The position numbers and the translations under genes are program-made. This document shows, piece after piece, positions 3,094 through 44,178 of a DNA stretch of 64,000 nt. The notes under the pieces are model-generated. The model made no database searches and was not told the origin of the DNA. It was given only the letters and a program-made list of their open reading frames with translations. Position 1 is the first letter of the stretch. Each line of letters opens with the position of its first letter. The DNA lies in NCBI GenBank assembly GCA_930990645.1, contig CAKNQJ010000001.1, forward strand, positions 104,153 to 168,152. Reading direction: 5' to 3'. Source of the stretch: an uncultured Clostridium sp. Lineage in GTDB: Bacteria; Bacillota; Clostridia; TANB77; CAG-508.

Positions 3094-3102
3094 AATTTTT
3101 AC

Positions 3103-3290
3103 TTGGACAAAAGGGACACTCCTTTTTGTTCAAGTTTTTGGATGTTTGGGACACTCCTTAAATTAGCTCTAGCATATGAAATATTTTATTCTATTTTTGT
3201 TAAATATTTAACTAATAGACCTGTCCCTTTTGTCCAAGTTCTTGGACGAAAAGGAGTGTCCCAAAAGTCCAAGTCCGACTATAAATAATA
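3103..3290. repeat. Cluster of GGGACACTCC / GACCTGTCCC / GGAGTGTCCC boxes with an internal GTCCAAG-ttc-TTGGAC inverted repeat
   Basis: Boxes at 3113-3122, 3148-3157, 3218-3227 and 3253-3262. Lies between convergent porB and lgt and overlaps the lgt 3-prime end. Confidence 0.85.
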
Positions 3291-4008
3291 CAATGCTAAT
3301 CCATTGTGAAGTTGATAAACTAAAGTATATTCCACGTATTAGGTCTCCTCTAAAGAATTCTAGAGTAAATCTAACTATGCTGTATAAAACTAAGTAAAGT
3401 CCAACAGTTTTGTATGTTCCTAAGAATTTTTTGTAAGTTAAAAGTAATACTATAAAAATTATAAAATTACATATCGCTTCTACAATTTGCATTGGGAATA
3501 ATGGTACATCATTTGGTGCAAGCAAAGAATCATGGAATGTAATAGCACCAAAGCCATGATATTCCATGCCATAACAGCAACCTGCACATAAGCAACCTAT
3601 TCTGCCAATACTATGAATTAGAGGTACTACAGGAAGTAAAATTAAAAGCAATTCTTTAAATGAAATTTTAAATTGTTTAGAATAAATAAATACTCCTAAA
3701 ATTCCTCCAATTAATCCACCATAAAATACGAATCCGCCTTTCAACATTTGCAAAAATGTATCATATAAATCCAGTGATTGATAATTTTCTACTAAGAATG
3801 GAATGTTAGTTATAATATATAAAAGTTTAGCTCCAATTCCAAGTCCAATAACAGCATATAGTATACAGTAAAAAACATCTTCTTTTTTTATATTAAAAAA
3901 CTTTGAAAAATAAAAAATTGAGATAATTGCACCAATAAAAATGCCTATAAAAATAATTAGACCATATGTTGCAATTTTATATCCAAATATATTAATGTAT
4001 GGTAACAT
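3208..4008 (-). CDS. lgt: Prolipoprotein diacylglyceryl transferase
   Basis: Lgt signature region (GRIGCLCAGCCYG) and multiple TM segments; RBS GGAGGA; last ~25 codons lie inside the repeat cluster. Confidence 0.85.
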   Translation of the reverse strand: MLPYINIFGYKIATYGLIIFIGIFIGAIISIFYFSKFFNIKKEDVFYCILYAVIGLGIGAKLLYIITNIPFLVENYQSLDLYDTFLQMLKGGFVFYGGLIGGILGVFIYSKQFKISFKELLLILLPVVPLIHSIGRIGCLCAGCCYGMEYHGFGAITFHDSLLAPNDVPLFPMQIVEAICNFIIFIVLLLTYKKFLGTYKTVGLYLVLYSIVRFTLEFFRGDLIRGIYFSLSTSQWISIVLFIVGLGLLGHSFSSKNLDKRDRSIS

Positions 4009-6927: not shown

Positions 6928-6955
6928 AATATCACTCCCATTTTGGTATTTAAAA

Positions 6956-7034
6956 TCCGTTCCATTTTGCTGGCACATATATTTTATCTTCTCCAAGTAT
7001 TCGAATAGAAAATATATGTGCCACGTGGAACTAC
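6956..7034. repeat. 79-bp MITE-like palindromic element, copy A
   Basis: TCCGTTCCATTTTGCTGG-CACATATATTTT-...-AAAATATATGTG-CCACGTGGAACTAC. The internal inverted repeat is a perfect 12 bp; related copies at 33320-33468 and 45037-45115. Confidence 0.8.
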
Positions 7035-9581: not shown

Positions 9582-10370
9582 ATGTTTGAAAACATAACAC
9601 ATTTTTTTAAGAAATTCAAAAAAAGCGAAAAATTAGAATCTAAAAGTACTGCTAAAGAAAGATTGCATCTTGTTTTAGCGCAAGATAGAGCAAATATTTC
9701 AGCAGACTTTTTAGAAATGATGAAACAAGAGATTTTAGAAGTAATTAAAAAATATATAGATATAGATGAAAAAGCAATAGATGTAAGACTTACAAATAAA
9801 GAAAGTGAAGATGGATCTGTAGGAGCGCCTGCTTTATATGCTAATATCCCTATCATAACTATAAAAAATGAGGCTAGGATGTTAGAGGGCTCAATAAACA
9901 AAGAAAAAGTAGCAAAAAATAAAGTTGATGAAATAGGAGAAAATGTGCCTGAAACAGTTGCAGAAGAAAAAGATGGGCAGAAAGAAGAGGTCTCAGAAAA
10001 TGCCGAAAGAGTTATAGAAGAGGCCTTAGAAAATGAAAGTGACGAAGAAATTGTAGGAAAGGTTTTAGAAAAGAAAAACAACGCAGGCGTTATAGAAAAG
10101 GCTTCAGAAAAGGAAAACAGCGCAGGAGGTATAGAAGAAGTCTCAGAAAATGAAGATAATGCAGGCGTTATAAAAAAAGTCTCAGAAAAAGAAAATGATA
10201 AAGAAAATACTGATTGGATAAAAGAAGAAGTTTTGGAGAGAATAAGCAATGGAAAGGAAATAGATGCTGGTTTTCAAAAACAGAACAAAGAAGAAATAAA
10301 AAATAGATCACGTAATAAGAAAAATAAGAAATATAATAAAATAAAAAGCAATAAAAAATATAGAAATTAG
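9582..10370 (+). CDS. minE: Cell division topological specificity factor MinE with a long acidic repeat-containing C-terminal extension
   Basis: N-terminal ~90 aa match MinE (KERLHLVLAQDRANIS...). The frame continues ~170 aa further with 13-aa repeats (NAGVIEKASEKEN, SAGGIEEVSENED, NAGVIKKVSEKEN). Confidence 0.8.
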   Translation: MFENITHFFKKFKKSEKLESKSTAKERLHLVLAQDRANISADFLEMMKQEILEVIKKYIDIDEKAIDVRLTNKESEDGSVGAPALYANIPIITIKNEARMLEGSINKEKVAKNKVDEIGENVPETVAEEKDGQKEEVSENAERVIEEALENESDEEIVGKVLEKKNNAGVIEKASEKENSAGGIEEVSENEDNAGVIKKVSEKENDKENTDWIKEEVLERISNGKEIDAGFQKQNKEEIKNRSRNKKNKKYNKIKSNKKYRN

Positions 10371-11830: not shown

Positions 11831-12802
11831 ATGTACTTAAAAAAACTAAAAATAGGAAATGTAGAATTACGAAATAACATACTCTTAGCTCCAATGGCAG
11901 GGATAACAGACCTGCCATTTAGATTGATATGCGAAAAATACGGAGCAGGGCTTTGTTGCACAGAAATGATAAGTAGCAAAGGTTTGTATTATAATGACTC
12001 AAAGACTAAGCTCTTTCTAAATTTAAAAGGAGAGCAAAGACCAGTAGCAGCCCAAATATTTGGAAGTGATATAGAAGCATTAAAATACGCAGCAGGCTAT
12101 GTTAGCGATTTTGTGGATATTGTAGATATAAATATGGGCTGCCCTGCACCTAAAATAGTAAAAAATGGAGATGGAAGTAAGCTACTTTTAAATTTAGAAT
12201 TAGTAGAAAAAATAGCAACAGAGGTTGTAAAAGCATCAAAAGTCCCAGTAACAGCAAAAATAAGAAAAGGCTGGGATGCTAACCACATAGTTGCAGTGAA
12301 AACGGCTAAAATACTAGAAAAATCAGGAATATCTGCAATAACAATACATGGAAGAACAAGAGAAGAATACTACTCCGGAAATGCAGATTGGGAAATTATT
12401 AAAAAAGTAAAAGAGACAGTAAATATACCTGTAATAGGAAACGGGGATATAAAGAGTAAAGAAGATGCTTTAAAAATGTTTAAAGAAACAAATGTAGATG
12501 GAATAATGGTAGGAAGAGCTGCAATAGGGAATCCATGGATATTTGAGGAGATAGTAGGTTATCTACAAGGAAAAGAGCAAAGACAAATTACAAAAAGCGA
12601 AAGACTTGAAACAATATTAGAACATATTAATCTGGCAGTAGAAGTAAAAGGAGAAAACATAGCAATAAAAGAAATGCGAAAACATTTAGCATACTATATA
12701 AAGAATACGAAAGATGCAAGTAGATTAAGAGAAAAGATAAACAAAATTGACACAAAAGCAGAATTAATAGATTGTCTAAACGAATACTTTAAAAACATAT
12801 AG
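11831..12802 (+). CDS. dusB: tRNA-dihydrouridine synthase
   Basis: Dus family FMN-binding motifs (LAPMAGITD, DINMGCP). Confidence 0.85.
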   Translation: MYLKKLKIGNVELRNNILLAPMAGITDLPFRLICEKYGAGLCCTEMISSKGLYYNDSKTKLFLNLKGEQRPVAAQIFGSDIEALKYAAGYVSDFVDIVDINMGCPAPKIVKNGDGSKLLLNLELVEKIATEVVKASKVPVTAKIRKGWDANHIVAVKTAKILEKSGISAITIHGRTREEYYSGNADWEIIKKVKETVNIPVIGNGDIKSKEDALKMFKETNVDGIMVGRAAIGNPWIFEEIVGYLQGKEQRQITKSERLETILEHINLAVEVKGENIAIKEMRKHLAYYIKNTKDASRLREKINKIDTKAELIDCLNEYFKNI

Positions 12803-12810
12803 AATAAATT

Positions 12811-12955
12811 GACAAAAGGGACACTCCTAAAGTGTCAAAAAAGTTTTACAAAAGGGACACTCCTAAATATTAGAAGAGTTGGATGTGGAGGAGTGTCCCA
12901 AAATGTAAAAAAAGATTTACAAAAAAGAGTGTCCCTTTTGTAAAATTTTTGTAAA
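12811..12955. repeat. GGGACACTCC / GGAGTGTCCC box cluster (TTGACAAAAGGGACACTCC units)
   Basis: Four boxes in 145 bp between dusB and the next gene. Confidence 0.85.
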
Positions 12956-14159: not shown

Positions 14160-14300
14160 AAATCGAACAAAGGTGACGGAGCATTTGTTTCAAGTTATCC
14201 ACACAATTCTGAAAAATTGTGGAAAAACTGCAACGAAAACTCCGTCCCATTTGTTTTATTTGTTCAAATTTCCGCAAAATTACTCCGTCCCCTTTTGTAA
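14160..14300. repeat. GACGGAGCATTTG / CTCCGTCCC box cluster (GGGACGGAG variant)
   Basis: Boxes at 14166, 14243 and 14283; lies between mazF and the convergent HD gene. Confidence 0.75.
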
Positions 14301-14305
14301 AAAAA

Positions 14306-15238
14306 TTAAACTTCCAATTTCTTTATAATCTTAATCTCATTATATAGCTTTTTTACTCTGTCTGACCTAAGTTCTAAAGCATTTTTGTAATCTTCATAAA
14401 CTTGTCTGTAATTATCAAAATTTTCATCTACTTGGAAAAGCATTCTCATACCTTCTTTGTAATATGACTTTTTCTTATCAGTTTTTGCTTCTTCCATTTT
14501 ATCTGCATATTTACATACAAGCTCAAGCCTTTTTATATTTTCTTTTAGATAATCTAAATACTCATATAAACAGCTGATTTCATACAAAATATCGTCTATA
14601 ACAACCTTAAATAAAACTTTCAAAACACGTTTATTAATCTTTCCAACTTTTGAATTCTGAGACAAATAGTCAAGAGCGACAAACTTAGGATCTGGCTGTG
14701 CATCTTTAATTAAGTCTTTTAAAGTTTCAGAAATATTAACGTGGGTTTTGTACTGCCTTTTTGTAACTATAGCATCGTATTCATCAGCTACACGCACAAT
14801 CTGTGCTTCCATAGGTACTTTCGTTATTCCATTTGGATATCCAGAGCCATTTAGTGCCTCATGGTGGTCAAGAGCAACTATTGAATATGGTCGTAAGTTT
14901 AAGTCTTTCATACACATTTCATAACCTTGTGTAGTATGAGTTTTCATTATTTCAAACTCTTCATCTGTAAGCTTATCTGGTTTGTTTAGAATTTCTGATG
15001 GAATAAATAATTTTCCGATGTCATGCAAATACGCAGAAATTGTGCAATAAATAGTAAAAGTTTTGCTACAATGTAAATACTCACAAATTCTACATGTTAA
15101 GTTTGCAACGTTTTCACTATGCCTTCTAGTAAAGAAATCCAAACTTCCAAGGATATCTAATTGATATCTCATAGTTTTATCTAAGTTATATGATTTTAAA
15201 TTAACTGGACTATAAAAATCAAATTTTTCAGCTTTCAT
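14306..15238 (-). CDS. HD-GYP/HD domain phosphohydrolase
   Basis: HD motif (HDIGK) and GYP-like region (HHEALNGSGYPNG). Confidence 0.7.
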   Translation of the reverse strand: MKAEKFDFYSPVNLKSYNLDKTMRYQLDILGSLDFFTRRHSENVANLTCRICEYLHCSKTFTIYCTISAYLHDIGKLFIPSEILNKPDKLTDEEFEIMKTHTTQGYEMCMKDLNLRPYSIVALDHHEALNGSGYPNGITKVPMEAQIVRVADEYDAIVTKRQYKTHVNISETLKDLIKDAQPDPKFVALDYLSQNSKVGKINKRVLKVLFKVVIDDILYEISCLYEYLDYLKENIKRLELVCKYADKMEEAKTDKKKSYYKEGMRMLFQVDENFDNYRQVYEDYKNALELRSDRVKKLYNEIKIIKKLEV

Positions 15239-18408: not shown

Positions 18409-18606
18409 ATGGATTTTAAGAGAAAAAACAAAGGAATAACGCTAGTGGCACTTGTAATCACAATTATAATCATAATAATTCTATCAACAATAGCAATCAA
18501 TTTCACATTTGGAGAAAATGGATTAATAACAAGGGCAGAGCAAGCAAAAGAGCTAGCAGAAGTTTTACAGGAGGAACAGGAGAAGAAGGAGACCCATATA
18601 CCTTAG
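18409..18606 (+). CDS. Short pilin-like N-terminal domain protein (65 aa), truncated paralog of the 53173 gene
   Basis: KGITLVALVITIIIIIILSTIAINFTFGENGL is nearly identical to the N-terminus of the 277-aa protein at 53173; RBS AAAGGAG. Confidence 0.5.
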   Translation: MDFKRKNKGITLVALVITIIIIIILSTIAINFTFGENGLITRAEQAKELAEVLQEEQEKKETHIP

Positions 18607-19995: not shown

Positions 19996-20248
19996 AGGAA
20001 AATAAAGAAAATCTATATATTCCATTTTGTTACCTAATATAAAATTAGAGATGAATCCTTGTACTAGAGTGTATAAACTAGTAGAATTATTAACAAAGTT
20101 TATGTAGACAAAATATCCCAATCTTTTTTTTATTCTCCCCTTGTGCTTAAATAATATAGAAACTTGTTGAAAAAAAGCTAAAAGTGCTATATAATCTACA
20201 AAGTGATTTATTAAAAATGTATAACTAATGCAATAATTTGGAATAAGA

Positions 20249-20300
20249 GGAGTGTCCCAAATGTCCAAAAACTTGGACAAAAAGGAGTGTCCCAAACGTC
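20249..20300. repeat. Paired GGAGTGTCCC boxes flanking a GTCCAAAAACTTGGAC inverted repeat
   Basis: Boxes at 20249-20258 and 20284-20293; lies 25 bp upstream of the smc ATG. Confidence 0.85.
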
Positions 20301-20318
20301 CAACAAAAGGAGAACTAT

Positions 20319-23878: not shown

Positions 23879-23923
23879 AACTAATTGTGCAGTTGGGGAC
23901 AGACCCCAATTGCACAATTAGTT
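23879..23923. repeat. 45-bp palindrome AACTAATTGTGCAGTTGGGG-acaga-CCCCAATTGCACAATTAGTT
   Basis: Begins 8 bp after the smc stop. Near-identical copy at 27906-27947 with the loop inverted. Confidence 0.85.
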
Positions 23924-24285: not shown

Positions 24286-24624
24286 TTCTACTCATTATTT
24301 TGAGTAAGAAAAAACAAGCAAATACCAGAATTATTTTCTGGCATAATACAAATACCGGAAGATTTGCTAAAATATAATGGTATATAAAAACAAAAGACTA
24401 TTCAATATAATAAAAAAACGGACAGAGATTAGAATATAGTAAGAGTGAAAATAAGAAATGAGGATTAAGGTTGAAAAATAATTACAATTTTGACGTTGTC
24501 GAACATCGTTTAAAATTTAATCAACGTACACAGAGTACGCCTCATAAATTTTAAACTCGTTTTCCTAGTCAAAATTTAATTCTTTTCCAACCAGACTTGT
24601 GCCTTAGGAAGGAATTGATTAATT

Positions 24625-27905: not shown

Positions 27906-27947
27906 AACTAATTGTGCAGTTGGGGTCTGTCCCCAATTGCACAATTA
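27906..27947. repeat. Second copy of the 45-bp palindrome, loop tctgt (inverted relative to copy 1)
   Basis: AACTAATTGTGCAGTTGGGG-tctgt-CCCCAATTGCACAATTA, read directly; begins 15 bp after the SNF2 stop. Confidence 0.85.
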
Positions 27948-31994: not shown

Positions 31995-32026
31995 GCAGAA
32001 GGCTATAAGGCTTTCTGCTAATTTTC
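31995..32026 (+). terminator. Intrinsic terminator GCAGAAGGC-tataag-GCTTTCTGC plus a T-rich tail
   Basis: 9-bp stem (one G-U pair) followed by TAATTTTCTG. Confidence 0.5.
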
Positions 32027-32189
32027 TGCTTCAACTATTCGTTCAAATTTGCAAAATATAATTGACTTTACAAGGTAGAAGTTATAAAATAGAAACTGTA
32101 AAAATAATGAATATTAGAGCGAAACCAGTTCTAATAACAAATAAAGCAAATATATTATATAAAAATATACAATTATTGGAGGAAACAAT

Positions 32190-33230
32190 ATGATAATTTT
32201 ACTAGATGCAATGGGTGGAGATAATGCACCAGATGCCAATATAAAAGGTGCAGTGGCTGCAATAAGTCAAATACAGGCAAAAGTAGTTTTGATAGGTAAA
32301 GAGGAAGTAATAAAAAGCCGTATTAAAGAATTATATGGAAAAGACGATATAAATGATATCTCTCCTAGATTAAGCATAAAAAACGCAACAGAGACAATAG
32401 AAATGGAGGATATACCAACCCAAGCGATAAAGCACAAAAAGGATTCTTCAATGGTTGTAGGATTTAACATGCTTAAATCTGGAGAAGGTGATGTGTTCAT
32501 TTCAGCAGGAAATTCAGGTGCACTTCTTACAGGAGCAACACTTTTGGTAGGAAGAATTAAAGGAATTGATAGACCAGCTTTGGCAGGAATACTCCCAGCA
32601 TACAAAAGCAGATTGCTATTAATGGATTGTGGCTCAAATACGAATTGCAAGCCAATTAATTTACTTCAATTTGCACAAATGTCAAGTATATATTTAAAAA
32701 ATACATTTGGAATGGAAGCACCAGCAGTAGGTTTGTTAAATATTGGAACTGAAGAAACCAAGGGAAATGAACTTACAAAAGAGTCATACCAACTATTAAA
32801 AGAAAATGCTGAAAAACTAGATATAAACTTTATTGGAAATGTTGAGGGAAGAGATGCCTTTTCTGGAAAAGTGGATGTAATTGTAACAGATGGATTTACA
32901 GGTAATGTATTCTTAAAATCTGTTGAAGGTTTGGGAAAATTCGTGAAAAAGAGCTTAACAGAAAGCTTAACACATAATTTACTAGCTAAAATCGCTGCAA
33001 TACCAAGTCTTCCAGCAATAAAGAAATTTTCTAAGACAGTAGATTACAAAGAATATGGTGGAGCTTTATTCCTAGGAGTAAAAAAACCAGTTGTAAAAGC
33101 ACATGGCAGTAGTGATGAAAAATTATTTGAATTTACAATTAAACAAGCAGAACAATTTGTAGAAAACAAGGCAGTTGACAAAATGATTGAGTCTTTTGAA
33201 GGACAAAAAATTGAAAAAGAAAACAATTAA
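32190..33230 (+). CDS. plsX: Phosphate acyltransferase PlsX
   Basis: LDAMGGDNAP N-terminus typical of PlsX; RBS GGAGGAAAC. Confidence 0.9.
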   Translation: MIILLDAMGGDNAPDANIKGAVAAISQIQAKVVLIGKEEVIKSRIKELYGKDDINDISPRLSIKNATETIEMEDIPTQAIKHKKDSSMVVGFNMLKSGEGDVFISAGNSGALLTGATLLVGRIKGIDRPALAGILPAYKSRLLLMDCGSNTNCKPINLLQFAQMSSIYLKNTFGMEAPAVGLLNIGTEETKGNELTKESYQLLKENAEKLDINFIGNVEGRDAFSGKVDVIVTDGFTGNVFLKSVEGLGKFVKKSLTESLTHNLLAKIAAIPSLPAIKKFSKTVDYKEYGGALFLGVKKPVVKAHGSSDEKLFEFTIKQAEQFVENKAVDKMIESFEGQKIEKENN

Positions 33231-33319
33231 GAAATTGACTACATAGTATAAAAAATAATAGGTTATTACTGTTTAGTATGATGTACTTTAAATAATTAAT
33301 AAACTTATTTTTATGCTAA

Positions 33320-33468
33320 GTAGTTCCACGTGGTAAATTTTTTTACAATACAGCCTCACGTGTCACATATATTTTTTACTCGAAAACATGGAGAGTACAA
33401 AATATATGTGACAGTAAGATGAGGCGGAATTTAGATGCTATATATATCTACCAGCAAGATGGAACGGA
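33320..33468. repeat. MITE-like palindromic element, copy B (inverse orientation, 149 bp with extra internal sequence)
   Basis: GTAGTTCCACGTGG...TGTCACATATATTTT...AAAATATATGTGACA...CCAGCAAGATGGAACGGA. Confidence 0.75.
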
Positions 33469-33648
33469 CTTTGCATATCTAGTCTTACACTGAATAGTAA
33501 CAAAAGATTTGTTACTATTCATAGCCTAAATTTAAAAGAATGATTTTACAATTTAAAGATTTTTTTAAAAATATATTGACAATTAATTTAATATGTATTA
33601 TTGTTAGATAAAGTAACTAACCAATGTTTAAGGAGGTGAACTTATACA

Positions 33649-33891
33649 ATGAGTTCAGAAGAAGTTTTCGAAAAAGTAAAAGGAATAATAGTTGAACAAC
33701 TAGGAGTAGCTGAAACAGCAGTTACAATGGAAGCATCTTTTATAGATGACTTAGGAGCTGATTCACTTGATATAGTTGAATTAATAATGGCCTTAGAAGA
33801 AGAATTCGATATAGAAATACCAGATGCTGATGCAGAAAAGGTTGTTTCTGTAGGAGATGTTGTAGATTATATAAAAGACCATTTAGCATAA
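33649..33891 (+). CDS. acpP: Acyl carrier protein
   Basis: DLGADSLD phosphopantetheine-attachment motif. Confidence 0.9.
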
Positions 33892-33892
33892 G

Positions 33893-33938
33893 ACAAAAAA
33901 ACAAAGAAATCTTTTGATTACTTTGTTTTTTTGTGCAA
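33893..33938 (+). terminator. Hairpin ACAAAAAAACAAAG / CTTTGTTTTTTTGT (14-bp perfect stem) after acpP
   Basis: AT-rich stem with a U-run built in. Confidence 0.4.
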
Positions 33939-34081
33939 AAAATGCATATACAAATTGGGAATACAATTCCAAATTTGTATAAAGTATAGAGGAACTTTTA
34001 GTAAAAACTTTGACTTAAAAGCTTTCTTTTTAGTAAAAAAAGGTGTATAATGTAAAAGTATAAATGAAAAGGAGGAGTGTA

Positions 34082-34750
34082 ATGGATTTTGAAAAAATAG
34101 AAAAAAGTATAGGATATACCTTTAAAGAAAAAGGACTGCTAAAAAAAGCGTTAACACATACGTCATATGCATATGAGCACAATGTTGAGAGTAATGAAAA
34201 ATTAGAATTCTTAGGAGATAGTATATTAGAATTTATTTCGAGTAAATACATTTATAATAATTACAAAAAACTTAAAGAAGGTGAAATGACTAAAGTTAGA
34301 GCAGAGGTAGTGTGTGAAACTAGCTTGTACAAAGTAGCTAAAGCACATAATTTTAGTGATTTTATCTTAATAGGAAAAAGTGAAGCAAATAATAACGGAA
34401 ACCATAAGCCAGCAATTCTTGCCGACAGTATAGAAGCGACAATAGCTGCAATATACTTTGATGGAGGGTTAGATGAGGCAGAGAGATTTATAATTTCTAA
34501 TTTAAAGGATGCAATAGAAAATTCTACAAAGCATGTAGGAATGAAAGACTTTAAAACTGTATTACAGGAAAAATTGCAAGAAAACGGAGATGTTAATATA
34601 AAATACACAGTTATAAAAGAAACAGGACCTGACCATGACAAAACATTTACTGTTAAAGTTGAAGTGAATGGAAGAGAACTCGCAACAGGAGAAGGAAAAA
34701 CAAAAAAACATGCAGAGATGGATGCTGCAAGAAAGGCTCTGGAAAACTGA
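34082..34750 (+). CDS. rnc: Ribonuclease III
   Basis: RNase III signature ERLEFLGDS (here EKLEFLGDSILE) and a C-terminal dsRBD; RBS AAAGGAGGAG. Confidence 0.9.
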   Translation: MDFEKIEKSIGYTFKEKGLLKKALTHTSYAYEHNVESNEKLEFLGDSILEFISSKYIYNNYKKLKEGEMTKVRAEVVCETSLYKVAKAHNFSDFILIGKSEANNNGNHKPAILADSIEATIAAIYFDGGLDEAERFIISNLKDAIENSTKHVGMKDFKTVLQEKLQENGDVNIKYTVIKETGPDHDKTFTVKVEVNGRELATGEGKTKKHAEMDAARKALEN

Positions 34751-34756
34751 AACAAA

Positions 34757-35055
34757 AGGGACACACCTAAACATCCAAGAACTTGGACATTAGGGACACT
34801 CCTTTTTGTCAAAAAAATTTGACAAAAGGGACAGGTCTTATACTGACCATAGATGTATGCAGAACTGTATCATAAATGCATTTGAAACTTGTACTAATAG
34901 AGAGGCTACGTAATGGATTACAACATATGTCTTATACTAACAATAATTGTGTGGAGAATTTGTATAAGAGAAGTGTCCCGGAGTGTAAAAAAGTTTGACA
35001 AAAAAGAGTGTCCCGAAGTGTAAAAAAAGATTGACAAAAAAGAGTGTCCCAAAGC
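34757..35055. repeat. Two clusters of GGGACAC/GGGACAGGTC/GAGTGTCCC boxes (34757-34850 and 34960-35055)
   Basis: At least 7 boxes, several as TTTGACAAAA(A)GAGTGTCCC; fills the 326-bp rnc to radical-SAM spacer. Confidence 0.85.
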
Positions 35056-35076
35056 GTAAAGAGAGGAGGTAGGCTG

Positions 35077-36090
35077 ATGAAAAAAGAGTACATAATTCCA
35101 ATTTTTGTTCCACATTTAGGTTGTCCGAATAATTGTACATTTTGTAATCAAAAAAGGATTAGTGGGCAAACTAAAATGGTAACTGCAAAAGATGTACAAG
35201 ATACAATAGAATATTATCTAAAGAATTTTAAAGATGACCATAAATATGTTGAAGTTGCATTTTTTGGTGGTAGCTTTACTGCAATTGAAGCAGAAAAGCA
35301 AATAGAGTTGTTAGAAGCTGCTCAAAAATATATACAAGCAAAATTAGTCAATAGCATTAGAGTTTCTACCAGACCAGATTGTATAGATAAAGAAGTTCTT
35401 AAGAGAATGAAAAAATATCATGTAAAAACAATCGAGCTTGGAGTACAGTCTACAAATAATTATATTCTAGAAAGATGCAAGAGAGGGCATACAGGAGAAG
35501 ATGTAAAAAAAGCCTCAAAATTAATTCGTATGCATGGATTTATATTAGGCCACCAAATGATGGTAGGACTACCAGAAAGTACAAAACAAGATGAAATAAA
35601 CACGGCAAAGGAACTGATAAAACTAAAACCTAAAATAGTAAGAATTTATCCAGTACTTGTAATAAAAGACACGGAGCTTGAAGATGAGTATGAAAATGGA
35701 ACATATACACCTCTTACAGTAGGTCAAGCTGTGGAAAGATGCAAAGATATTGTTGATTTGTTTAATAGAAGTAAGATAAATGTAATAAGAATAGGACTCC
35801 AAAATACAGAAGAGATTTCAGATCCTAATTCAGAAAAAAGCAGCGTAGTGGCAGGACCATATCATCCAGCATTTAGGCAACTTGTTGAATCTAGCATGTG
35901 GTACGATAGTATAGTAAATAAGATAAAAAAAGTTAATGCAAAAGTTAAAAAAGTAAAGATCATAGCAAATGATATAAATATAAACAATATTATAGGACAC
36001 AAAAAAGAGAATATAACAAAGCTTAGAGATGTATATGATGTTGATGTGGTAATCGAAAAAAGCGATAAAATAAAACCACGGAAAATTTGA
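35077..36090 (+). CDS. Radical SAM protein (ELP3/TIGR01212-like)
   Basis: CPNNCTFC radical SAM cysteine motif; RBS GAGAGGAGG. Confidence 0.8.
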   Translation: MKKEYIIPIFVPHLGCPNNCTFCNQKRISGQTKMVTAKDVQDTIEYYLKNFKDDHKYVEVAFFGGSFTAIEAEKQIELLEAAQKYIQAKLVNSIRVSTRPDCIDKEVLKRMKKYHVKTIELGVQSTNNYILERCKRGHTGEDVKKASKLIRMHGFILGHQMMVGLPESTKQDEINTAKELIKLKPKIVRIYPVLVIKDTELEDEYENGTYTPLTVGQAVERCKDIVDLFNRSKINVIRIGLQNTEEISDPNSEKSSVVAGPYHPAFRQLVESSMWYDSIVNKIKKVNAKVKKVKIIANDININNIIGHKKENITKLRDVYDVDVVIEKSDKIKPRKI

Positions 36091-36127
36091 AATAGAGATT
36101 TTGGAATCATATGAATAATGGTATAAA

Positions 36128-36171
36128 ATCACCTACTATTGGAAATAATACCAATAGTAGGTGATTTTTTT
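36128..36171 (+). terminator. Intrinsic terminator ATCACCTACTATTGG / CCAATAGTAGGTGAT plus T7
   Basis: 15-bp perfect inverted repeat followed by TTTTTTT. Confidence 0.6.
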
Positions 36172-37032
36172 ATGAGAAAATTAACTCGAAAGCAGATATT
36201 GGTAAGGAAATATTTTAAAGAATTTATAGAGATAATAATAGGCTCGTTGCTAATGGCAGCAGGAACATCGCTATTTTTGCTACCAAATCAATTGTCATCA
36301 GGTGGATTTGCAGGTATAGCGACAATTATTTATTATCTTTTTGGATTGCCTCTTGGAACTACAATGCTTATTTTAAATATACCGCTATTTATTTTAACTA
36401 TTATTAGAGTAGGAAGAGAAACTGCAATAAAAGGATTGATAGGAACAATAGCACTATCAGTATTTATAGATATTTTAGAAAACTTTGATCCATTAACAGA
36501 GGATAGATTTCTTGCATGCATATATGGTGGAATATTGGTAGGACTAGGAACTGCAATTGTACTAAAAGCAAATGCATCAACAGGGGGAACAGATTTATTA
36601 ACCTACATTGTGCGCTCATATAAACCAACATACAGAGCAAGTAACCTTATTGTAATAGTAGACACAGCGATAGTATTATTAAACGTATTATTTTTCAAAG
36701 AAGTTGAAATCGGCTTATATTCAGCAATAGCGATTTATTTAAGTGGAAAAATGATAGATATTGTATTCGAAGGTATATATTTTACAAAAACAATGTTTAT
36801 AGTTTCGAATAAATATAAGGAGATTGCTCAAGAAATAGGAGAGAAGTTGGACAGGGGAAGTACGGCAATTTATGCAAAAGGAATGTATACAAGAGAAAAG
36901 AAAATGATGCTTTGGTGTGTTGCATCGAGGGGAGAAGTGGCTAAAATAAAACAAATAGCGGAAGAAATAGATCCAAAGGCATTTATAGTAATCTCAAGTG
37001 CAAGAGAGGCTTGGGGAAAAGGGTTTAAGTAG
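36172..37032 (+). CDS. YitT family membrane protein (DUF161/DUF2179)
   Basis: Multi-TM N-terminal region and a C-terminal DUF2179-like domain. Confidence 0.75.
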   Translation: MRKLTRKQILVRKYFKEFIEIIIGSLLMAAGTSLFLLPNQLSSGGFAGIATIIYYLFGLPLGTTMLILNIPLFILTIIRVGRETAIKGLIGTIALSVFIDILENFDPLTEDRFLACIYGGILVGLGTAIVLKANASTGGTDLLTYIVRSYKPTYRASNLIVIVDTAIVLLNVLFFKEVEIGLYSAIAIYLSGKMIDIVFEGIYFTKTMFIVSNKYKEIAQEIGEKLDRGSTAIYAKGMYTREKKMMLWCVASRGEVAKIKQIAEEIDPKAFIVISSAREAWGKGFK

Positions 37033-37207
37033 AAAAACAACCAAATTTTACCAAAAAGCTTGACATTTACGAACTTAGATGTTATATAAAATATATAGCA
37101 TCTAGGTCTTTTTTTCAATTAATTTTTATTCTAAAGACATTTTTTCTAAATTAAACTTCCAAAATGTTTAAAGAATTAAATAATTATGATATAATGGAGG
37201 TGATAAT

Positions 37208-37474
37208 TTGCCGCTTATTTCACAGTTTTATGGTATACTCATATATATTTATAAAGAAATTGGAGGACATCATAATGAGCCTCATATACATATAAAGTAT
37301 AATGAATTTGAAATGTCTTTGTCCTTATCTGGCAAAGTTTTAGATGGATATATTCCTAATAAGCAAAAGAAACTAGTAGATGCATGGATAGCAATTCATG
37401 AGGAAGAATTAAAAGCAGCATGGTATTCTTATAATGAAGATGGAGAAATTATAAAAATAAAAGGATTGGAGTGA
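37208..37474 (+). CDS. DUF4160 domain protein
   Basis: TTG start with RBS GGAGGTG; GGHHNEPHIH motif. Confidence 0.6.
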   Translation: MPLISQFYGILIYIYKEIGGHHNEPHIHIKYNEFEMSLSLSGKVLDGYIPNKQKKLVDAWIAIHEEELKAAWYSYNEDGEIIKIKGLE

Positions 37475-37479
37475 TTTAG

Positions 37480-37716
37480 ATGAGACCTAGAGCTATAGAT
37501 GTAAAACCATTACAAGATTATAAATTACTAATAACTTTTAGTAATAATGAAAAGAAAATTTTTGATGTGACTCCATATTTAAAATATAAACAATTTGAAG
37601 AATTAAAAAATCCAACTATATTTAAGACTGTTAAGATAGCTGGGCTTTCTATAGAATGGATTAATGGAGCAGATATTTGTCCAGATGAATTGTATAATAA
37701 TAGTGAGAAAATATAG
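37480..37716 (+). CDS. DUF2442 domain protein
   Basis: 78 aa; paired with the DUF4160 gene 5 bp upstream. Confidence 0.6.
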   Translation: MRPRAIDVKPLQDYKLLITFSNNEKKIFDVTPYLKYKQFEELKNPTIFKTVKIAGLSIEWINGADICPDELYNNSEKI

Positions 37717-37733
37717 GTACGGAGGAAATAGAA

Positions 37734-38603
37734 ATGCAAGAACAAAAATACATACTAGAAAATGCTACATCATTTGAGCCAAAGCACATATTTGAGTGTG
37801 GACAATGTTTTAGATGGGACGAAGAGCAAGATGGAAGCTATACAGGAATAGTAAAAAGCAATGTGATAAATGTGAAAAAAGTGGATAACTCCATTGCTTT
37901 TGAGAGTCTAGGTGCAGATAATTTAGAAGAATTAGTTATAGACTATTTCGACTTAAATAGAGATTATGAGAAAATAAAAGATGAGCTTTCTAAAATAGAT
38001 GAATACTTAGCAAATAGCATAAAGTATGGAAGCGGAATTAGAATATTAAATCAAGATTTATGGGAGACAATTATCTCATTTATAATTTCAGCAAATAATA
38101 ATATACCTAGAATAAAGGGAATAATAAATAGAATATCGCAAAAGTATGGAACTGAAATTGAATGGAAAGGAAAAAAGTACTACACTTTTCCTACAGTAGA
38201 AAATTTAGCTAAAGCCACAGTAGAAGATTTAAGAAGTTTAGGATTAGGCTTTAGAGATATACGTGTATATAATACAACTCATAAAATACTAGAAAAACAA
38301 GTGGATTTAGAAAAGCTTCATCAAGAGGTGGATACACAAAAGGTAAGAGACACATTGCTTACTTTAGATGGAGTTGGACCAAAAGTTGCAGATTGCATAC
38401 TACTTTTCTCTACTTTAAAAAGATTTGATGTTTTCCCTATAGATGTATGGGTAAGACGAGTAATGAATGAATTATACATAAAAAATGAAGATGAAACAAA
38501 AGTAAATAAAAAAGATATAGAAAAGTTAGCAAAAGAAAAGTACGGCAATTTAGAGGGAATAGCACAGCAATACTTATTTTATTGGAAGAGGGATACGGCA
38601 TAG
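37734..38603 (+). CDS. 8-oxoguanine DNA glycosylase/AP lyase (HhH-GPD family, Ogg-like)
   Basis: HhH-GPD motif LTLDGVGPKVADCILLFS. Confidence 0.75.
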   Translation: MQEQKYILENATSFEPKHIFECGQCFRWDEEQDGSYTGIVKSNVINVKKVDNSIAFESLGADNLEELVIDYFDLNRDYEKIKDELSKIDEYLANSIKYGSGIRILNQDLWETIISFIISANNNIPRIKGIINRISQKYGTEIEWKGKKYYTFPTVENLAKATVEDLRSLGLGFRDIRVYNTTHKILEKQVDLEKLHQEVDTQKVRDTLLTLDGVGPKVADCILLFSTLKRFDVFPIDVWVRRVMNELYIKNEDETKVNKKDIEKLAKEKYGNLEGIAQQYLFYWKRDTA

Positions 38604-38609
38604 TGAGAA

Positions 38610-38745
38610 TTTGAGGTCTGTCCCCGAAACGAAAAATTTTTCAGTCTGGGGACAGGTCTGAAAACGAAAAAAATTGCGTCCGGAGACCTGTCCCCAAAAC
38701 GAAAATTTTTTCGCTGGGAGACCTGTCCCTAAAACGAAAAAGGAG
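38610..38745. repeat. Four tandem ~35-bp units, each a GACCTGTCCCC or GGGGACAGGTC box followed by AAAACGAAAA(A)TTTTT
   Basis: Read directly. The last unit runs into the RBS of addB. Confidence 0.85.
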
Positions 38746-38751
38746 ATAGTT

Positions 38752-41700
38752 ATGAGCTTAAGAATTATCTATGGTAAGTCTGGTACTGGGAAGAGTACAT
38801 ACATATTTAATGAAATAGCAGACAAAATAAAGCAAAGCAATAGAAAAATATATATTATAACGCCTGAGCAGTTTTCTTTTACTGCGGAGAAGAAGCTACT
38901 AGATTCAATTGATGCTCCTTCTGTGATTTCTGCTGAGGTTTTGACTTTTAATCGTATGGCATATAGAGTTATGAAAGAGCTTGGAAATGCCAACATAAAT
39001 AACTTATCTTCAACAGGCAAGTCAATGCTTATTTTTGACATTTTGTCTGAGCAGAAAAACAATCTAAAGTTTATTGGAAAGTCTTCTGAAAATATAGAGA
39101 TGATTGGCACTCAAATAACTGAGTTTAAGAAACATGGTATTACAGCAGAAAATTTGAAGAATGTCATGGAGAATACAGAGGATAAGTATTTGAAGGCAAA
39201 GATTAATGATATGCTAAGTGTGTATGAAAAGTATACAGAAGAGATTTCAAATGATTATATAGATGAAAATGATAGTTTGACGATACTTGCAGAAAAGTTA
39301 GACTATGTACATGATTTCGATAATACAGATATATACATAGATGAGTTTGTGGGCTTTACTCACCAAGAATATGAGATAATAAGGAAACTTTTAACTAAGG
39401 CGAATGAAGTAAATATTACTGTATGCACAGATGATACGAATTTAAGCGAAAACCAAGATACAGATGTATTTTGTGCAAATAAAACAACTTTGGATAAAGT
39501 ATATTACATAGCCAAACAAGAAGGTGTAAAAATAGAAAAGCCTATATGCTTAGACACATTATATAGGTTTAAAAGTGATGAGTTAAAGCATTTGGAAGAA
39601 AATATATATGCATTTCCATATAAAAAATATGATAGAAATGTGAAAGATATAGAGCTATTTTTGGCTAAAAATCAATATTCTGAGATAGAGCATGTGGCAG
39701 AGAAAATCGTAAAACTTGTACGAGATAATAATTACAGATACAATGATATATCAGTTATTACTAAGGATTTGGAGGGATATTCAAGCCTATGTAAGGCTAT
39801 ATTTAATGAATATGATATACCAGTGTTCATAGATGAGAAAAAGGATTTGAGTCAAAATATTTTAGTAAAATATTTGCTATCTGTGATAAATATTTTCGCT
39901 AAGAATTGGTCTGCATCAAGTATTTTTGAATATTTGAAAACAGGGCTTGTAAACGACATAGATGATGACGATATATGGACAATAGAAAATTATGTATTAA
40001 GATGGGGAATAAAAGGCTCTAAATGGTATAATGGAGAGTGGAATTTCTATAACGAAACTGAAGAAATCCAAGAAAAAATTTTGCATATTAGAGAGAAAAT
40101 AGCAAGCCCTTTGCTAAAATTAAAAAATGAATTATCTGGTAGTAAAGATGTAAGAACGATTACAACTAAATTATATGAATTTTTGATTAACAATGGAATT
40201 AATGCGAACTTAGAGAAGAAAATCGAAGAATTAGAGGAAATGGGCGAGGTTGAAAAAGCAAAAGAATATGAGACAAGCTACAAACTAATTATGGACTTAC
40301 TAGATGAGATGGTAATGCTCTTTGACGATAAAAAAGTAAGTTTTGATAAATATGCAGAAATGCTAAAAATAGGATTAGGAAATAGTGGACTTGGAAAAAT
40401 ACCTGGTACACAAGACCAAGTTATTGTGGGAGATGTGGATAGGTCTAGGTCGCACAAGGTAAAAGCTGTATTTATTATAGGTTTAAATGATGGAATGTTC
40501 CCTAGTGTGAATAAGAACGAGGGCTATTTTAATGATAATGATAGAGAAGTTTTAAAAGGTGTAGGTGCAGAACTTGCAAAGGGGACAACAGAGAAACTTT
40601 ATGATGATAATTTTAATATATATAAAGCGTTTTCTACTTCGGAAGAAAAGCTATACTTATCATATGCTTCATCTGATTTGGAAGGAAAATCACTTAGACC
40701 ATCTATATTAATTAACAGAATAAAAAAGATATTTCCTAAACTAGAGGAGCAAAGTGATGTTGTAGAAAAGCAAAGTGAAATAATAACAAAGATGAGTACT
40801 TTCGAGACACTTTTGCATAAATTAAGTGAATTTAGAGATGGAAAAGATATAGAAGAAAAGTGGTTTGAAGTATATAATTATTATGCAAATAGTGATGAAT
40901 GGAAGGAAAAATTAGAAAATAGTTTAAAGGCTCTAAACTTTAACATTGAACCAGATAAAATAGATAAAAATATTGTCCAAAAGTTATATGGAGACACATT
41001 AAAAACCAGTGTATCGAGATTGGAACAATACAAGTCATGCCCATTTTCATACTATTTGAAATATGGATTAAGTCTTTCAGAAAGAGAAGAATTCAAAATA
41101 CAAGCAATAGACACAGGAACATTTATGCATGATGTAATAGATAGCTTTTTCGACAAAGTACAAGAAAAAGGTATTGGGTTAAAAAGCATAGAACAAGAGC
41201 AAATTGAGGAAATAGTAGACGAAATTATTGAAGAAAAGTTACAATTAAAGAAAAACTATATTTTCACAAGTATTCCGAAATATAGGGTTTTAGCAAATAG
41301 GCTAAGAAAAGTAATAAAGAAGTCCATGATATACATTGTAGACAGTTTAAAATATAGTGACTTTGAAGTAATGGGGCATGAGCTAGAATTTAAGAATGGC
41401 AAACAATATCAAGCAATACAAATGGAATTAGAAAATGGCAAAAAGGTAGAAATAACAGGGAAGATTGATAGGATAGACATAGCCAAAACTCCAGAAGGAA
41501 ACTATATAAGGATAATAGATTACAAATCATCTACAAAAGATATTAACTTAAATGAAGTTGTTGCAGGACTGCAATTGCAACTACTTACATATTTAGATGC
41601 GGTTTGCAATATCGAAGATGTAATGCCAGCAGGAGTGCTATATTTTAACCTAATTGACCCTAGCATAAAAGAGGAAAGCAAGATTAGCGAAGAAAAGTTG

Positions 41701-42102
41701 CAAGATGAGATAAGAAAACAATTTAAAATGAAGGGGCTTATTCTAGCAGATGTGGATATAGTAAAAAAGATGGACACAAAATTAGAAAAGGGAAATTCTA
41801 ACATAATTCCTGCATATATAGATAAGGATGGCAATTTATCTAATAAATCTAGTACAATAACAAGAGAGCAGTTTGAAAATTTGCAGAAATATACGAACAA
41901 AATAATCAAGCAAATCTCAAATGAAATTATGTCAGGGGATATTAATGTAAAACCATATTACAAGATCAAGAATGGTCAAACACCATGCAGTTACTGTAAA
42001 TACAAATCTGTATGCAATTTTAATACTGGCATCTGCAAAAAGCAGTATAATTATATTGGTAATGAGAGTAAGGATGCTGTGCTAGAAGAAATAGGCGGTT
42101 AG
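38752..42102 (+). CDS. addB: ATP-dependent helicase/deoxyribonuclease subunit B (AddB)
   Basis: N-terminal GKSGTGKST P-loop and a C-terminal Fe-S nuclease cysteine cluster (CPFSYY...CSYCKYKSVC); RBS AAAAAGGAG. Confidence 0.9.
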   Translation: MSLRIIYGKSGTGKSTYIFNEIADKIKQSNRKIYIITPEQFSFTAEKKLLDSIDAPSVISAEVLTFNRMAYRVMKELGNANINNLSSTGKSMLIFDILSEQKNNLKFIGKSSENIEMIGTQITEFKKHGITAENLKNVMENTEDKYLKAKINDMLSVYEKYTEEISNDYIDENDSLTILAEKLDYVHDFDNTDIYIDEFVGFTHQEYEIIRKLLTKANEVNITVCTDDTNLSENQDTDVFCANKTTLDKVYYIAKQEGVKIEKPICLDTLYRFKSDELKHLEENIYAFPYKKYDRNVKDIELFLAKNQYSEIEHVAEKIVKLVRDNNYRYNDISVITKDLEGYSSLCKAIFNEYDIPVFIDEKKDLSQNILVKYLLSVINIFAKNWSASSIFEYLKTGLVNDIDDDDIWTIENYVLRWGIKGSKWYNGEWNFYNETEEIQEKILHIREKIASPLLKLKNELSGSKDVRTITTKLYEFLINNGINANLEKKIEELEEMGEVEKAKEYETSYKLIMDLLDEMVMLFDDKKVSFDKYAEMLKIGLGNSGLGKIPGTQDQVIVGDVDRSRSHKVKAVFIIGLNDGMFPSVNKNEGYFNDNDREVLKGVGAELAKGTTEKLYDDNFNIYKAFSTSEEKLYLSYASSDLEGKSLRPSILINRIKKIFPKLEEQSDVVEKQSEIITKMSTFETLLHKLSEFRDGKDIEEKWFEVYNYYANSDEWKEKLENSLKALNFNIEPDKIDKNIVQKLYGDTLKTSVSRLEQYKSCPFSYYLKYGLSLSEREEFKIQAIDTGTFMHDVIDSFFDKVQEKGIGLKSIEQEQIEEIVDEIIEEKLQLKKNYIFTSIPKYRVLANRLRKVIKKSMIYIVDSLKYSDFEVMGHELEFKNGKQYQAIQMELENGKKVEITGKIDRIDIAKTPEGNYIRIIDYKSSTKDINLNEVVAGLQLQLLTYLDAVCNIEDVMPAGVLYFNLIDPSIKEESKISEEKLQDEIRKQFKMKGLILADVDIVKKMDTKLEKGNSNIIPAYIDKDGNLSNKSSTITREQFENLQKYTNKIIKQISNEIMSGDINVKPYYKIKNGQTPCSYCKYKSVCNFNTGICKKQYNYIGNESKDAVLEEIGG

Positions 42103-42266
42103 CGATAGAAATTTGTAGCTAAAATTTAAAAAGTCTCAAAGAACATTAAAAAAAAATTTTGAATATGTTGGTCAAGTTTCAAATTACATTTCATATTCTA
42201 ATAATTTTTTAATTGTTTTCGGGACTTTTTATAATTTAATAACGTTCTTTACTTTTACAGTAAAAA

Positions 42267-42926
42267 TCATAATGAAAAGTCTTTCTCAGCTACAGGTTGA
42301 TTTTGCTTAGTAGAAATTGACCTAGGAGAATTAATTTTTTCTAATAGTGAATTAATAGAATTAGTTAATTCTTCAGGTAATTCATTTTGTAGTTGCAAAT
42401 CACATAATACTTTTAGGTTTGAACCAAAAGAATATCTATCAAACAAATCCGGATGAAAAGTCTTTAGCGAACTTGAACATTCTAGCAATTGTAGCAATTC
42501 AGCAGGATTATTGTATGAGATTGTTCCTTTGTCTCTTTGCATTTGCTTAAGGTATAATCCTATTCCAGCCATTTTCCTTAATGCATGGTGTGAATTTTCA
42601 TCGTTTAATAGAGGTTTACCAGATAAAATGGAATTATATGCATCTTGGCATATGTGATATACAAAGTTATTTGTAGAAATATTACACCTTTCAAAATCTT
42701 TTGAACGTATATCCCACATTTGTGAAAGAGTATCGACATTTACAGGATGTCCCTCGTGGGCATACTTTGCACCAAATAAAAACAAATTTGTCATTTCGTA
42801 AGCATTTGGGTCTTTTGCCCAATCAAAAGCATCTCTGTTTTCTTTTATCCAATTTAAAACATTCTCAGCAGTGTTATTAAAACTATAACTTGGAATGTTA
42901 TCTTGAAAATTAAAATTATAATCCAT
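42267..42926 (-). CDS. Hypothetical protein
   Basis: 219 aa; RBS AGGTGA; no recognisable family. Confidence 0.45.
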   Translation of the reverse strand: MDYNFNFQDNIPSYSFNNTAENVLNWIKENRDAFDWAKDPNAYEMTNLFLFGAKYAHEGHPVNVDTLSQMWDIRSKDFERCNISTNNFVYHICQDAYNSILSGKPLLNDENSHHALRKMAGIGLYLKQMQRDKGTISYNNPAELLQLLECSSSLKTFHPDLFDRYSFGSNLKVLCDLQLQNELPEELTNSINSLLEKINSPRSISTKQNQPVAEKDFSL

Positions 42927-44169: not shown

Positions 44170-44178
44170 TAAAAAAAA

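Follow-up and report, generated by a model that had tools for sequence, protein, structure and literature searches.

A family of phased palindromic repeats, probably of REP/BIME type, in the intergenic spacers of an uncultured gut Clostridium

Repetitive extragenic palindromes (REPs) are 20-40-bp extragenic palindromes that often occur as head-to-head dimers or in regularly spaced clusters; they carry either a GTAG tag, associated with REP-associated tyrosine transposases (RAYTs), or a CGTC/TGTC tag in families without a dedicated transposase, and the eight host phyla given for them do not include the Firmicutes (PMC3733652). In canonical REPs linked to RAYTs, the hairpin foot carries GT[AG]G, and class-2 Y1 genes are patchily distributed, sparse outside a few phyla and tied to larger genomes (PMC6006769). 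The biology of REPs and of REP doublets forming hairpins (REPINs) has been worked out almost wholly in Proteobacteria. Here we describe, in a window of 64,000 nucleotides (the whole stretch of DNA that was analysed) lying within a 157-kb metagenomic contig of an uncultured Clostridium sp. (GCA_930990645.1), a family of intergenic boxes of sequence GGGAC[A/G]NNNC, set in units of ~35 nt, which has its own grammar and no catalogued name. We propose that it is probably a lineage-specific group of non-coding palindromic repeats of the REP type and of the type of bacterial interspersed mosaic elements (BIMEs), REPIN-like in form, which colonised the short spacers of small, low-GC genomes of uncultured gut Clostridium.

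The box is strongly over-represented in the window. GGGACA has 39 occurrences where dinucleotide shuffles give 9.66 +/- 2.99, the degenerate 10-mer GGGACRSNNC has 31 matches for 0.56 expected, and the twin-box pattern GGGACACTCC-N24-27-GGGACACTCC has four where none is expected. Approximately 40 boxes, including three of sequence GGGACACTCT as well as degenerate units of the form (G/A)NGACGGAGC, are distributed over 15 intergenic clusters. These sum to ~1.7 kb and occupy 2.7% of the window, or ~18% of the non-coding DNA in it. These counts agree with an earlier note on this DNA, which had estimated about 40 boxes, far above chance; every cluster that it listed was found again in a cluster-by-cluster reading, as were its variants GGGACACTCC, GGGACAGGTC, GGGACACACC, GGGACACTTC and GGGACGGAGC, to which can be added the variants GGGACAGACC, GGGACAGGCC and GGGACGGACC and three solo hairpins (898-936, 23882-23920 and 27909-27947). 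Its GC content of 28% has to be corrected to 30.9%, and A exceeds T on the + strand across the window. The boxes had been described as intergenic, and they are: coding DNA holds two matches, both weak (9361 and 47553), and a covariance model of the unit gives ~24 matches at E<0.1, all of them inside the intergenic clusters of a window that is ~85% open reading frame (ORF). The placement after stops and before starts, also described previously, is equally clear, the first box of an array beginning 1-27 nt past a stop codon and the last one 24-37 nt ahead of the next start codon, with the element ending at the Shine-Dalgarno (SD) sequence; addB (start 38752) and the radical-SAM gene (start 35077) had been correctly named at two of these sites.

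The twin-box pattern was found in at least 12 species-level low-GC metagenome-assembled genomes (MAGs) labelled 'uncultured Clostridium/Clostridia', a lineage with contigs of up to 1.65 Mb and genomes of ~1.6 Mb, and had no match in viral contigs. A comparison by blastn of the element at 3099-3276 with PLSDB plasmids and INPHARED phages gave no match, and scanning metagenomes with the protein of an adjacent gene yielded three loci only. The impossibility of assigning the boxes to a described family, stated beforehand, is in line with Rfam 15, which has no match in the whole window at the gathering score and, at E<=10 on two elements, nothing specific, the only matches being generic long-hairpin ones to miRNA models. 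A full-text literature search for the 10-mer returned unrelated primer sequences only, and the available portion of the supplementary text of PMC3733652 contains neither GGGAC nor GTCCC.

The fixed part of the unit is the 10-nt box alone, in an alignment of 262 boxes anchored on the 10-mer and taken from the window and its low-GC relatives. The box is asymmetric (opposite-strand core YGTCCC), bordered on both sides by A/T runs and enclosed by a 5-7-bp inverted repeat, S/S', of which positions -11 to -5 pair with +15 to +21 across the box and covary; in one column pair, for example, A-T occurs 117 times, G-C 31 times and C-G 28 times. Helix pairing reaches 80.2% of cells in a curated set of 60 units, against 54.4% in shuffles, while controls with a slid alignment are 26-47% paired; double-sided changes in the stem number 120 for 43.8 expected, a figure as high as this being found in none of 500 shuffles. 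The linkers, four bases to the left and four to the right of the box, consist of A runs or T runs without mutual complementarity, so that the hairpin normally does not extend through them. Mismatches in the stem are strand-symmetric (summed, 0.49 for the G-U type and 0.45 for the A-C type), and therefore neither strand appears favoured as RNA, which fits palindromes at the level of DNA. On this ground the RNA-processing motif that had been offered as one option is not favoured, although an RNA-level side effect may exist.

Units are arranged head-to-tail according to the grammar S-box-S'-S-box. In protein-anchored sequence, which was not selected by pattern, neighbouring boxes of the same orientation are spaced by 34-36 nt in 23 cases out of 27, and junctions between opposite orientations are convergent by 11:1; the latter ratio is 49:1 at pattern-selected loci, with 60 convergent and 2 divergent junctions overall. 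A stem S/S' of 5 bp or more encloses 84% of the outermost (first) boxes of arrays, the background being 10%, and the innermost (last) box usually lacks S'. Two such chains meet with their box ends inward, so a complete element is a long imperfect palindrome about a centre which is unique to the locus and is not repeat sequence. The boxes had been said to occur usually as inverted pairs: inverted partners do exist, but the dominant form is not the simple pair, it is a row of tandem units with the 34-36-nt period facing an inverted array. A rule of orientation, 'sense after stops, antisense before starts', was tried and dropped, one relative (L104) having antisense boxes directly past the smc stop; the apparent rule is a trivial outcome of convergent, symmetric elements.

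As the arrays are convergent, complete elements are expected to fold as long hairpins, and three of them fold at -57 (-57.1 for 12805-12949), -74.5 (3099-3276) and -82.6 kcal/mol, with z of -8.9, -10.0 and -4.7, respectively, relative to shuffles. It could be hypothesised on this basis that the family consists primarily of RNA elements, i.e. intercistronic or 3'-untranslated-region stem-loops that selection maintains as sites of RNase III processing, as barriers to exonucleases or as weak terminators, with the box as the GC clamp of long-range helices. The elements are indeed situated in transcribed spacers of operon-like gene strings, fold with z from -5 to -10 and pair their left and right boxes as 10-bp GC-rich helices; it is also established that REPs stabilise upstream mRNA (PMC6006769), and the unit at 48806-48836 scores as terminator-like. 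We nevertheless regard an RNA function as the primary identity as quite improbable: a U tract is present in only 1-2 units, the stem mismatches are symmetric between strands, half elements and solo units are common, a close relative has an element-free spacer of 4 nt, and no Rfam family corresponds to the elements. Moreover, such a function accounts for an effect of the family and not for its origin or spread. In the interval 32000-51000, a terminator scan found only the site at 48806-48836 (+) and one - strand site to be terminator-like, and intrinsic terminators were rejected as the general identity of the units.

Box subtype and stem type are co-inherited, which defines subfamilies: ACTCC occurs with TTGAAC/TTGGAC, AGGTC with TGTCG, AGACC with GTGCA and GGTTC with TGAGA/TGGGA. 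This co-inheritance of stems points to copying. Species-level dialects of the box are also apparent, CTCC in the genome of the window and GGTC in L104. Dialects of a heavily over-represented 10-mer, inverted pairs after genes as in the DNA uptake sequences (DUS) of Neisseria, and the presence of prepilin-type ORFs (18409-18606) could suggest that the boxes are uptake or self-recognition sequences of the DUS or uptake-signal-sequence (USS) type. This is, in our opinion, the least probable of the explanations weighed here, for the boxes are practically absent from coding DNA, whereas uptake sequences also occur within genes, and a fixed 35-nt tandem scaffold with covarying stems is not a feature of uptake signals.

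The comparison of orthologous spacers between relatives reveals a rapid turnover. The spacer between rnc and the radical-SAM gene, 294 nt long with 3+3 boxes in the window, measures 4 nt in the relative L102/L103 (96% amino-acid identity to the window), whose rnc ORF reads through an element remnant, CTTGGACAAAAAGAG (L102 7990-8029); the same spacer is box-free in L104 and L105. Between znuA and an ABC ATPase gene, the spacer is empty in L107 and L108 and contains a 110-nt palindromic element in L106, a locus of the window's own contig; the ZnuA ORF runs into this element (12340-12380) and thereby gains a new C-terminus. In the rpsR spacer, L107 and L108 keep a symmetric four-box form from which the genome of the window has lost exactly one outer unit of 34-35 nt, and a single unit of this size has been gained upstream of addB in L102. 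Downstream of mreB, L106 and L107 have S in common and then differ by box type and array, the break falling at the GGGAC core. The spacers before and after smc have different arrangements in three lineages, and the degenerate units at 46185-46245 are absent from the orthologous spacer of L059.

The znuA element of L106 replaced 16 nt of target with no target duplication, in the one clean filled/empty pair (n=1). This bears on the idea that the elements are miniature inverted-repeat transposable elements (MITEs) of a DDE transposon, Tn7- or Mu-like, whose ends hold several transposase-binding sites. Such an idea would explain why the site is directly repeated within each end and inverted between ends, and the lineage does possess IS256-family transposases and at least one true MITE-like family. 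We find it very improbable, given the lack of duplication at this sole pair, the unique centres devoid of conserved internal sequence, the restriction of the fixed part to 10 nt with variable stems, the IS256 ends unrelated to the box, and the fact that single 35-nt units move or vanish alone.

The main rival of our proposal is a conserved host protein-binding site. The boxes would then be arrays of sites for one host protein, acting on DNA (in the nucleoid, as insulator or as operator) or on RNA; they would be selected and not transposed, and the 35-nt scaffold would merely present them. The 10-nt box is invariant in variable surroundings, a - box directly upstream of the addB ribosome-binding site is kept in four lineages (the window, L102, L096 and L105) and boxes in the smc spacers in three, the linkers are homopolymeric A or T runs that need no pairing, as would be the case for spacers or bent DNA, and the orientation is strongly non-random (60:2). 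On the other hand, the flanking genes are functionally unrelated (PFOR subunits, ferredoxin, lgt, dus, mazF, smc, SNF2 helicase, rnc, radical SAM, ogg, addB, LD-carboxypeptidase, udg, leuS, adhE and rpsR), sites and whole arrays are present or absent between relatives 96% identical, and ORFs enter them. The place of the box relative to the smc promoter also varies, upstream of it once (L104) and within the 5' untranslated region twice, the window included; the subfamilies indicate copying, and no candidate binding protein was identified. We therefore judge this explanation unlikely, although it is the least unlikely of the rivals. For the first two of these reasons, the operator mentioned as an option in the earlier note is not favoured. 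Its first suggestion, a REP/BOX-like intergenic family, is by contrast supported by the covarying hairpin stems, the extragenic location, the spaced composite arrays, the subfamilies and the turnover.

Several observations weigh against a family of REP/BIME type. The boxes of the addB and smc spacers persist across genus-level divergence with 10/10 identity while their flanks change, and a selected host function would explain this persistence equally well. Long copies of near identity, which would be proof of recent transposition, were not observed, and no RAYT, Y1 or IS200-like ORF was found in the window or in ~0.6 Mb of loci from low-GC relatives. The Clostridial unit consensus contains no GT[AG]G foot of the kind that RAYT-type REPs have. 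Head-to-tail dimers with a period of 34-36 nt dominate here and are negligible in the catalogued REP families (PMC3733652), and the host lineage has genomes of ~1.6 Mb, whereas class-2 Y1 genes go with larger ones (PMC6006769). Finally, the 10-mer stands in different structural contexts in other phyla, so that its sharing between phyla may be a coincidence or a convergence.

This last point arises from high-GC genomes, many of whose MAGs were found by the same twin-box scan to hold tandem 34-37-nt hairpin repeats carrying GGGACACTCC. A Y1 transposase gene stands beside the repeats in 4 of ~36 such 8-kb loci, from four unrelated genomes of other phyla: L025 matches NF047646 (REP_Tyr_transpos, REP-associated tyrosine transposase) with 87.3 bits for a cutoff of 80, and also PF01797; L003 matches PF01797 and has ++ boxes upstream and a - box downstream; the Y1 gene of L054 has a + box upstream and seven - boxes downstream; and L028 has a C-terminal Y1 fragment ~60 nt from boxes. 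Since RAYTs are typically single-copy (PMC5581495), four of them in ~36 loci of 8 kb would be unexpected by chance, and this excess indicates that the high-GC repeats are REPs. The role of the 10-mer in them varies, forming stem and loop in the Planctomycetes-Verrucomicrobia-Chlamydiae (PVC) group and Nitrospinota (those of a GTAG-type REP in L025 and in PVC bacteria) and an apical GGGG-ACACU-CCCC hairpin elsewhere. Homology between these RAYT-flanking repeats and the Clostridial family is possible. A broader hypothesis, to which we accord a small but real chance, is that hairpins of the GGGACACTCC type constitute a REP class apart from the GTAG and CGTC super-families and distributed across many phyla. 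It would be coupled to RAYTs in some of them (Actinomycetota, Planctomycetota and perhaps others) and, in small-genome gut Clostridia, would have expanded to phased 35-nt arrays in nearly every permissive spacer, where either a nuclease that has escaped recognition would maintain it or a host factor would bind it as domesticated punctuation of gene boundaries.

As regards the mechanism, we infer that the family of REP/BIME type would be copy-and-decay DNA. A RAYT-type HUH/Y1 nuclease, or an enzyme of analogous function whose gene lies elsewhere in the genome, may act in trans by recognising, cutting and re-joining single-stranded box hairpins. New units would be added preferentially beside existing boxes, without target-site duplication, and slippage or unequal recombination between 35-nt units would then gain or delete units. 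Selection would retain only the copies that spare ORFs and ribosome-binding sites, which would explain the flush fit between stop codon and SD sequence. Transcribed copies would form very stable stem-loops, probably acting only incidentally as protectors of mRNA 3' ends or as processing sites.

Along the window, the first element (334-407; model matches at 334-372 on the + strand and 369-407 on the - strand) separates the POR-gamma stop (348) from the ferredoxin gene (426). The stop TAG overlaps its + box (348-357, GGGACAGGTC), its - box lies at 384-393, and each box has one S/S' hairpin, GGAATTTA/TAAATTCC and GTGGAAAA/TTTTCCAC. The solo - strand hairpin at 898-936 (box GGGACGGACC, 913-922) is 28 nt upstream of the PFOR alpha start (949). 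Between the convergent PFOR-beta (stop 3093) and lgt genes, the element flagged by the earlier note (3099-3276) comprises two + boxes (3113-3122 and 3148-3157) and two - boxes (3218-3227, of GGTC type, and 3253-3262) on either side of a unique centre of 60 nt; the repeat (3208-3262) supplies the final ~17 codons of the lgt ORF (3208-4008, - strand). The element at 12805-12949 separates dus (stop 12802) from the gene that comes after it (12971); two of its boxes are on the + strand, at 12818-12827 and 12854-12863, and two on the - strand, at 12890-12899 and 12926-12935 (GGGACACTCT). It is followed by a degenerate element at 14160-14300, between a mazF-like gene (stop 14159) and an HD-domain gene (14306-15238, - strand), with a + unit GTGACGGAGC at 14173-14182 and - units bearing CTCCGTCCC at 14240-14248 and 14283-14291. 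The unique centre of this degenerate element holds a perfect DnaA-box consensus, TTATCCACA (14195-14203), which occurs once on the + reading strand and, within ORFs, twice on the opposite one.

The 5' region of smc (start 20319) contains a half element on the - strand (20238-20307, boxes 20249-20258 and 20284-20293), downstream of a promoter-like TTGAAA...TATAAT, and 27 nt past the smc stop lies the solo perfect hairpin AATTGTGCAGTTGGGGACAGACCCCAATTGCACAATT (23882-23920, +; box 23896-23905). A near-identical inverted twin of the latter, at 27909-27947 (-; box 27924-27933), follows the stop of the SNF2-helicase gene (27891). The largest element (34750-35060) fills the spacer from the rnc stop (34750) to the radical-SAM gene (SD 35065, ATG 35077), with three + boxes (34758, 34793 and 34828) and three - boxes (34970-34979, 35005-35014 and 35041-35050) flanking a unique centre of 132 nt. 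The gene directly upstream of it (34064-34750) encodes RNase III (PF00636, PF14622, PF00035), an adjacency that may be a coincidence, since relatives lack the element. Between the ogg stop (38603) and addB (ATG 38752), the element at 38605-38745 is of GGTC/GACC types with CGAAAA/TTTTCG as S, its boxes lying at 38615-38624 (-), 38649-38658 (+), 38685-38694 (-) and 38720-38729 (-).

Degenerate + units at 46185-46245, after the LD-carboxypeptidase stop (46181), consist of GGAAACGGAGCA (46198-46209) and TGGACACACC (46232-46241). The array at 48798-48935, after a gltD-like gene, begins at 48798 with a degenerate unit ATGACGGAGC and continues with + boxes at 48816, 48852 and 48888 (GGGACACTTC) and a decayed - box, GAGTGACCTC, at 48926-48935; the stop TGA (48808-48810) of the gltD-like ORF (47467-48810) sits in the stem TTGACA following the degenerate unit. 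A second degenerate + unit ATGACGGAGC, in the element at 50123-50310 between convergent genes, provides the TGA stop (50122-50124) of the ORF 49048-50124; past a unique centre, the - boxes of this element (50252-50261 and 50287-50296) abut the leuS stop (50296). A solo - strand unit (57343-57381, box GGGACAGGCC at 57358-57367) precedes adhE (57390) by 24 nt, and after rpsR (stop 63179) the element at 63180-63289 has a + box at 63193-63202 (CACC) and - boxes at 63232-63241 (CACC) and 63266-63275 (GGAGC).

The ORF 49048-50124, of 358 aa with an HExxH motif, is bracketed by inverted box arrays; it has no match in Pfam, NCBIfam or PADLOC, and a different ORF occupies the equivalent position in L059. 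This ORF and seven others enclosed by inverted arrays were considered as associated genes and rejected, having no mutual similarity and no transposase among them, and those tested in the window having no Pfam, NCBIfam or PADLOC match. Among the tested neighbours, no toxin or defence match was found save a generic SNF2 and a weak HD-domain match. Two readings of the box as a local signal were likewise discarded. Mimicry of the SD or anti-SD sequence, the reverse box reading AAGGAG and resembling the 16S 3' end, has no match in the GGTC, GACC and GGAGC types, and the high-GC versions are differently flanked; a promoter (TTGACA-N17/18-TATAAA) fits a single unit, at 48888.

Other repeats, distinct from the boxes, are present in this region. 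An unrelated MITE-like element of ~125 nt with terminal inverted repeats GGTTGAAAAATAAT...TTCTTTTCCAACC is found at 24469-24592, with copies in L106 (13190-13340, 15225-15480 and 16760-16900) and equivalents in L107 and L108. Its presence varies among close relatives: L106 and L107 have it in the ABC|ABC-3 spacer, which is empty in L108, L108 alone has it in the znuA|ABC spacer, and in the trpS|obg spacer L106 has an additional insertion within the MITE-like element. A third repeat is a long hairpin of ~85 nt, TCCGTTCCATCTTGCTGG-(AT-rich stem)-CCACGTGGAAC, at 6947-7034 (+), 45028-45115 (+) and 33357-33472 (-). Its identity with the copies of L014, L075 and L102 is 83-97%, which exceeds the conservation of adjacent genes, and its 27-bp consensus stem includes 9 pairs with compensatory changes and has no Rfam match. 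A 39-nt tandem repeat (10067-10195, 3.3 copies, 76% matches), coding and unrelated to the boxes, is part of the ORF 9582-10370, to which the annotation of L098 assigns a MinE domain. The 65-aa ORF at 18409-18606 has a prepilin-type hydrophobic N-terminus (KGITLVALVITIIIIIIL), with similar stretches in L035, L068, L084 and L102. Just upstream of the window (L098 1-9210), a giant gene whose product of 5170 aa extends past the end of the locus carries RCC1 and WD40_RLD repeats and contains no boxes.

The family offers a test of whether repeats of this kind can persist without a RAYT. It also offers an explanation for polymorphism in spacer length and in C-termini between strains, as the lgt, znuA and rnc ORFs run into or through elements. 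Practical caution is called for in MAG assembly, gene calling and the discovery of non-coding RNAs in these genomes; the elements could also be used as strain markers.

Among the known systems to which the family can be compared, BOX, RUP and SPRITE of Streptococcus pneumoniae and the enterobacterial ERIC are modular intergenic repeats that form stem-loops when transcribed and vary in module number. They are longer (about 50-130+ nt) and conserved over their full length, and have neither a 10-nt invariant box with free stems nor 35-nt phased inverted arrays. The ToxI arrays of type III toxin-antitoxin systems are ~36-nt tandem direct repeats confined to one locus, immediately ahead of a toxin gene of the ToxN family. 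An array of this type was rejected, the boxes occupying dozens of loci beside housekeeping genes, with inverted partners and no toxin match in the tested neighbours. An array of clustered regularly interspaced short palindromic repeats (CRISPR) was rejected too, as the 35-nt period has no unique spacers and the many loci have inverted partners. The family resembles the REP/BIME and REPIN-RAYT systems of Enterobacteria and Pseudomonas in several respects: both are short imperfect palindromes forming stem-loops, extragenic, after stops and within operons, assembled in regularly spaced composite clusters whose inverted units are mostly head-to-head and whose doublets fold as long hairpins. Subfamilies within a genome, the absence of target duplication (for the Clostridial family, at its one clean filled/empty pair), long persistence at spacers combined with turnover, and hundreds of copies expected per genome are further common features, and hairpins of the 10-mer flank RAYT genes in four other genomes. 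The Clostridial box differs in that its YGTC tetramer is parted from the stem by A/T runs, that the conserved part is the 10-nt box between or inside hairpins and not the stem, and that the stems are only 5-7 bp and highly diverse. Compared with the REPIN, an inverted doublet that forms one hairpin, the elements are also long hairpins, yet their centres are unique and single 35-nt units come and go. In the CGTC-tagged REPs, which include dRS3 of Neisseria and RPE-4/-6 of Rickettsia, the tag directly adjoins a stem of 8-9 bp that has a loop of 4-5 nt and a CCA tail, whereas the Clostridial tag is within the 10-mer and is followed by A/T runs before the 5-7-bp stem; clusters and tandems are rare in these families, unlike the Clostridial arrays. 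Nevertheless, the CGTC-tagged families, which have no dedicated transposase, recall the one described here, for which none was found in the window and ~0.6 Mb of low-GC loci, and they share with it a tag that may be TGTC, comparable to the invariant YGTC-CC core of the Clostridial box (TGTCCC or CGTCCC), a predominance of head-to-head dimers, an occurrence in AT-rich and small genomes too, and units that can enter ORFs (PMC3733652).

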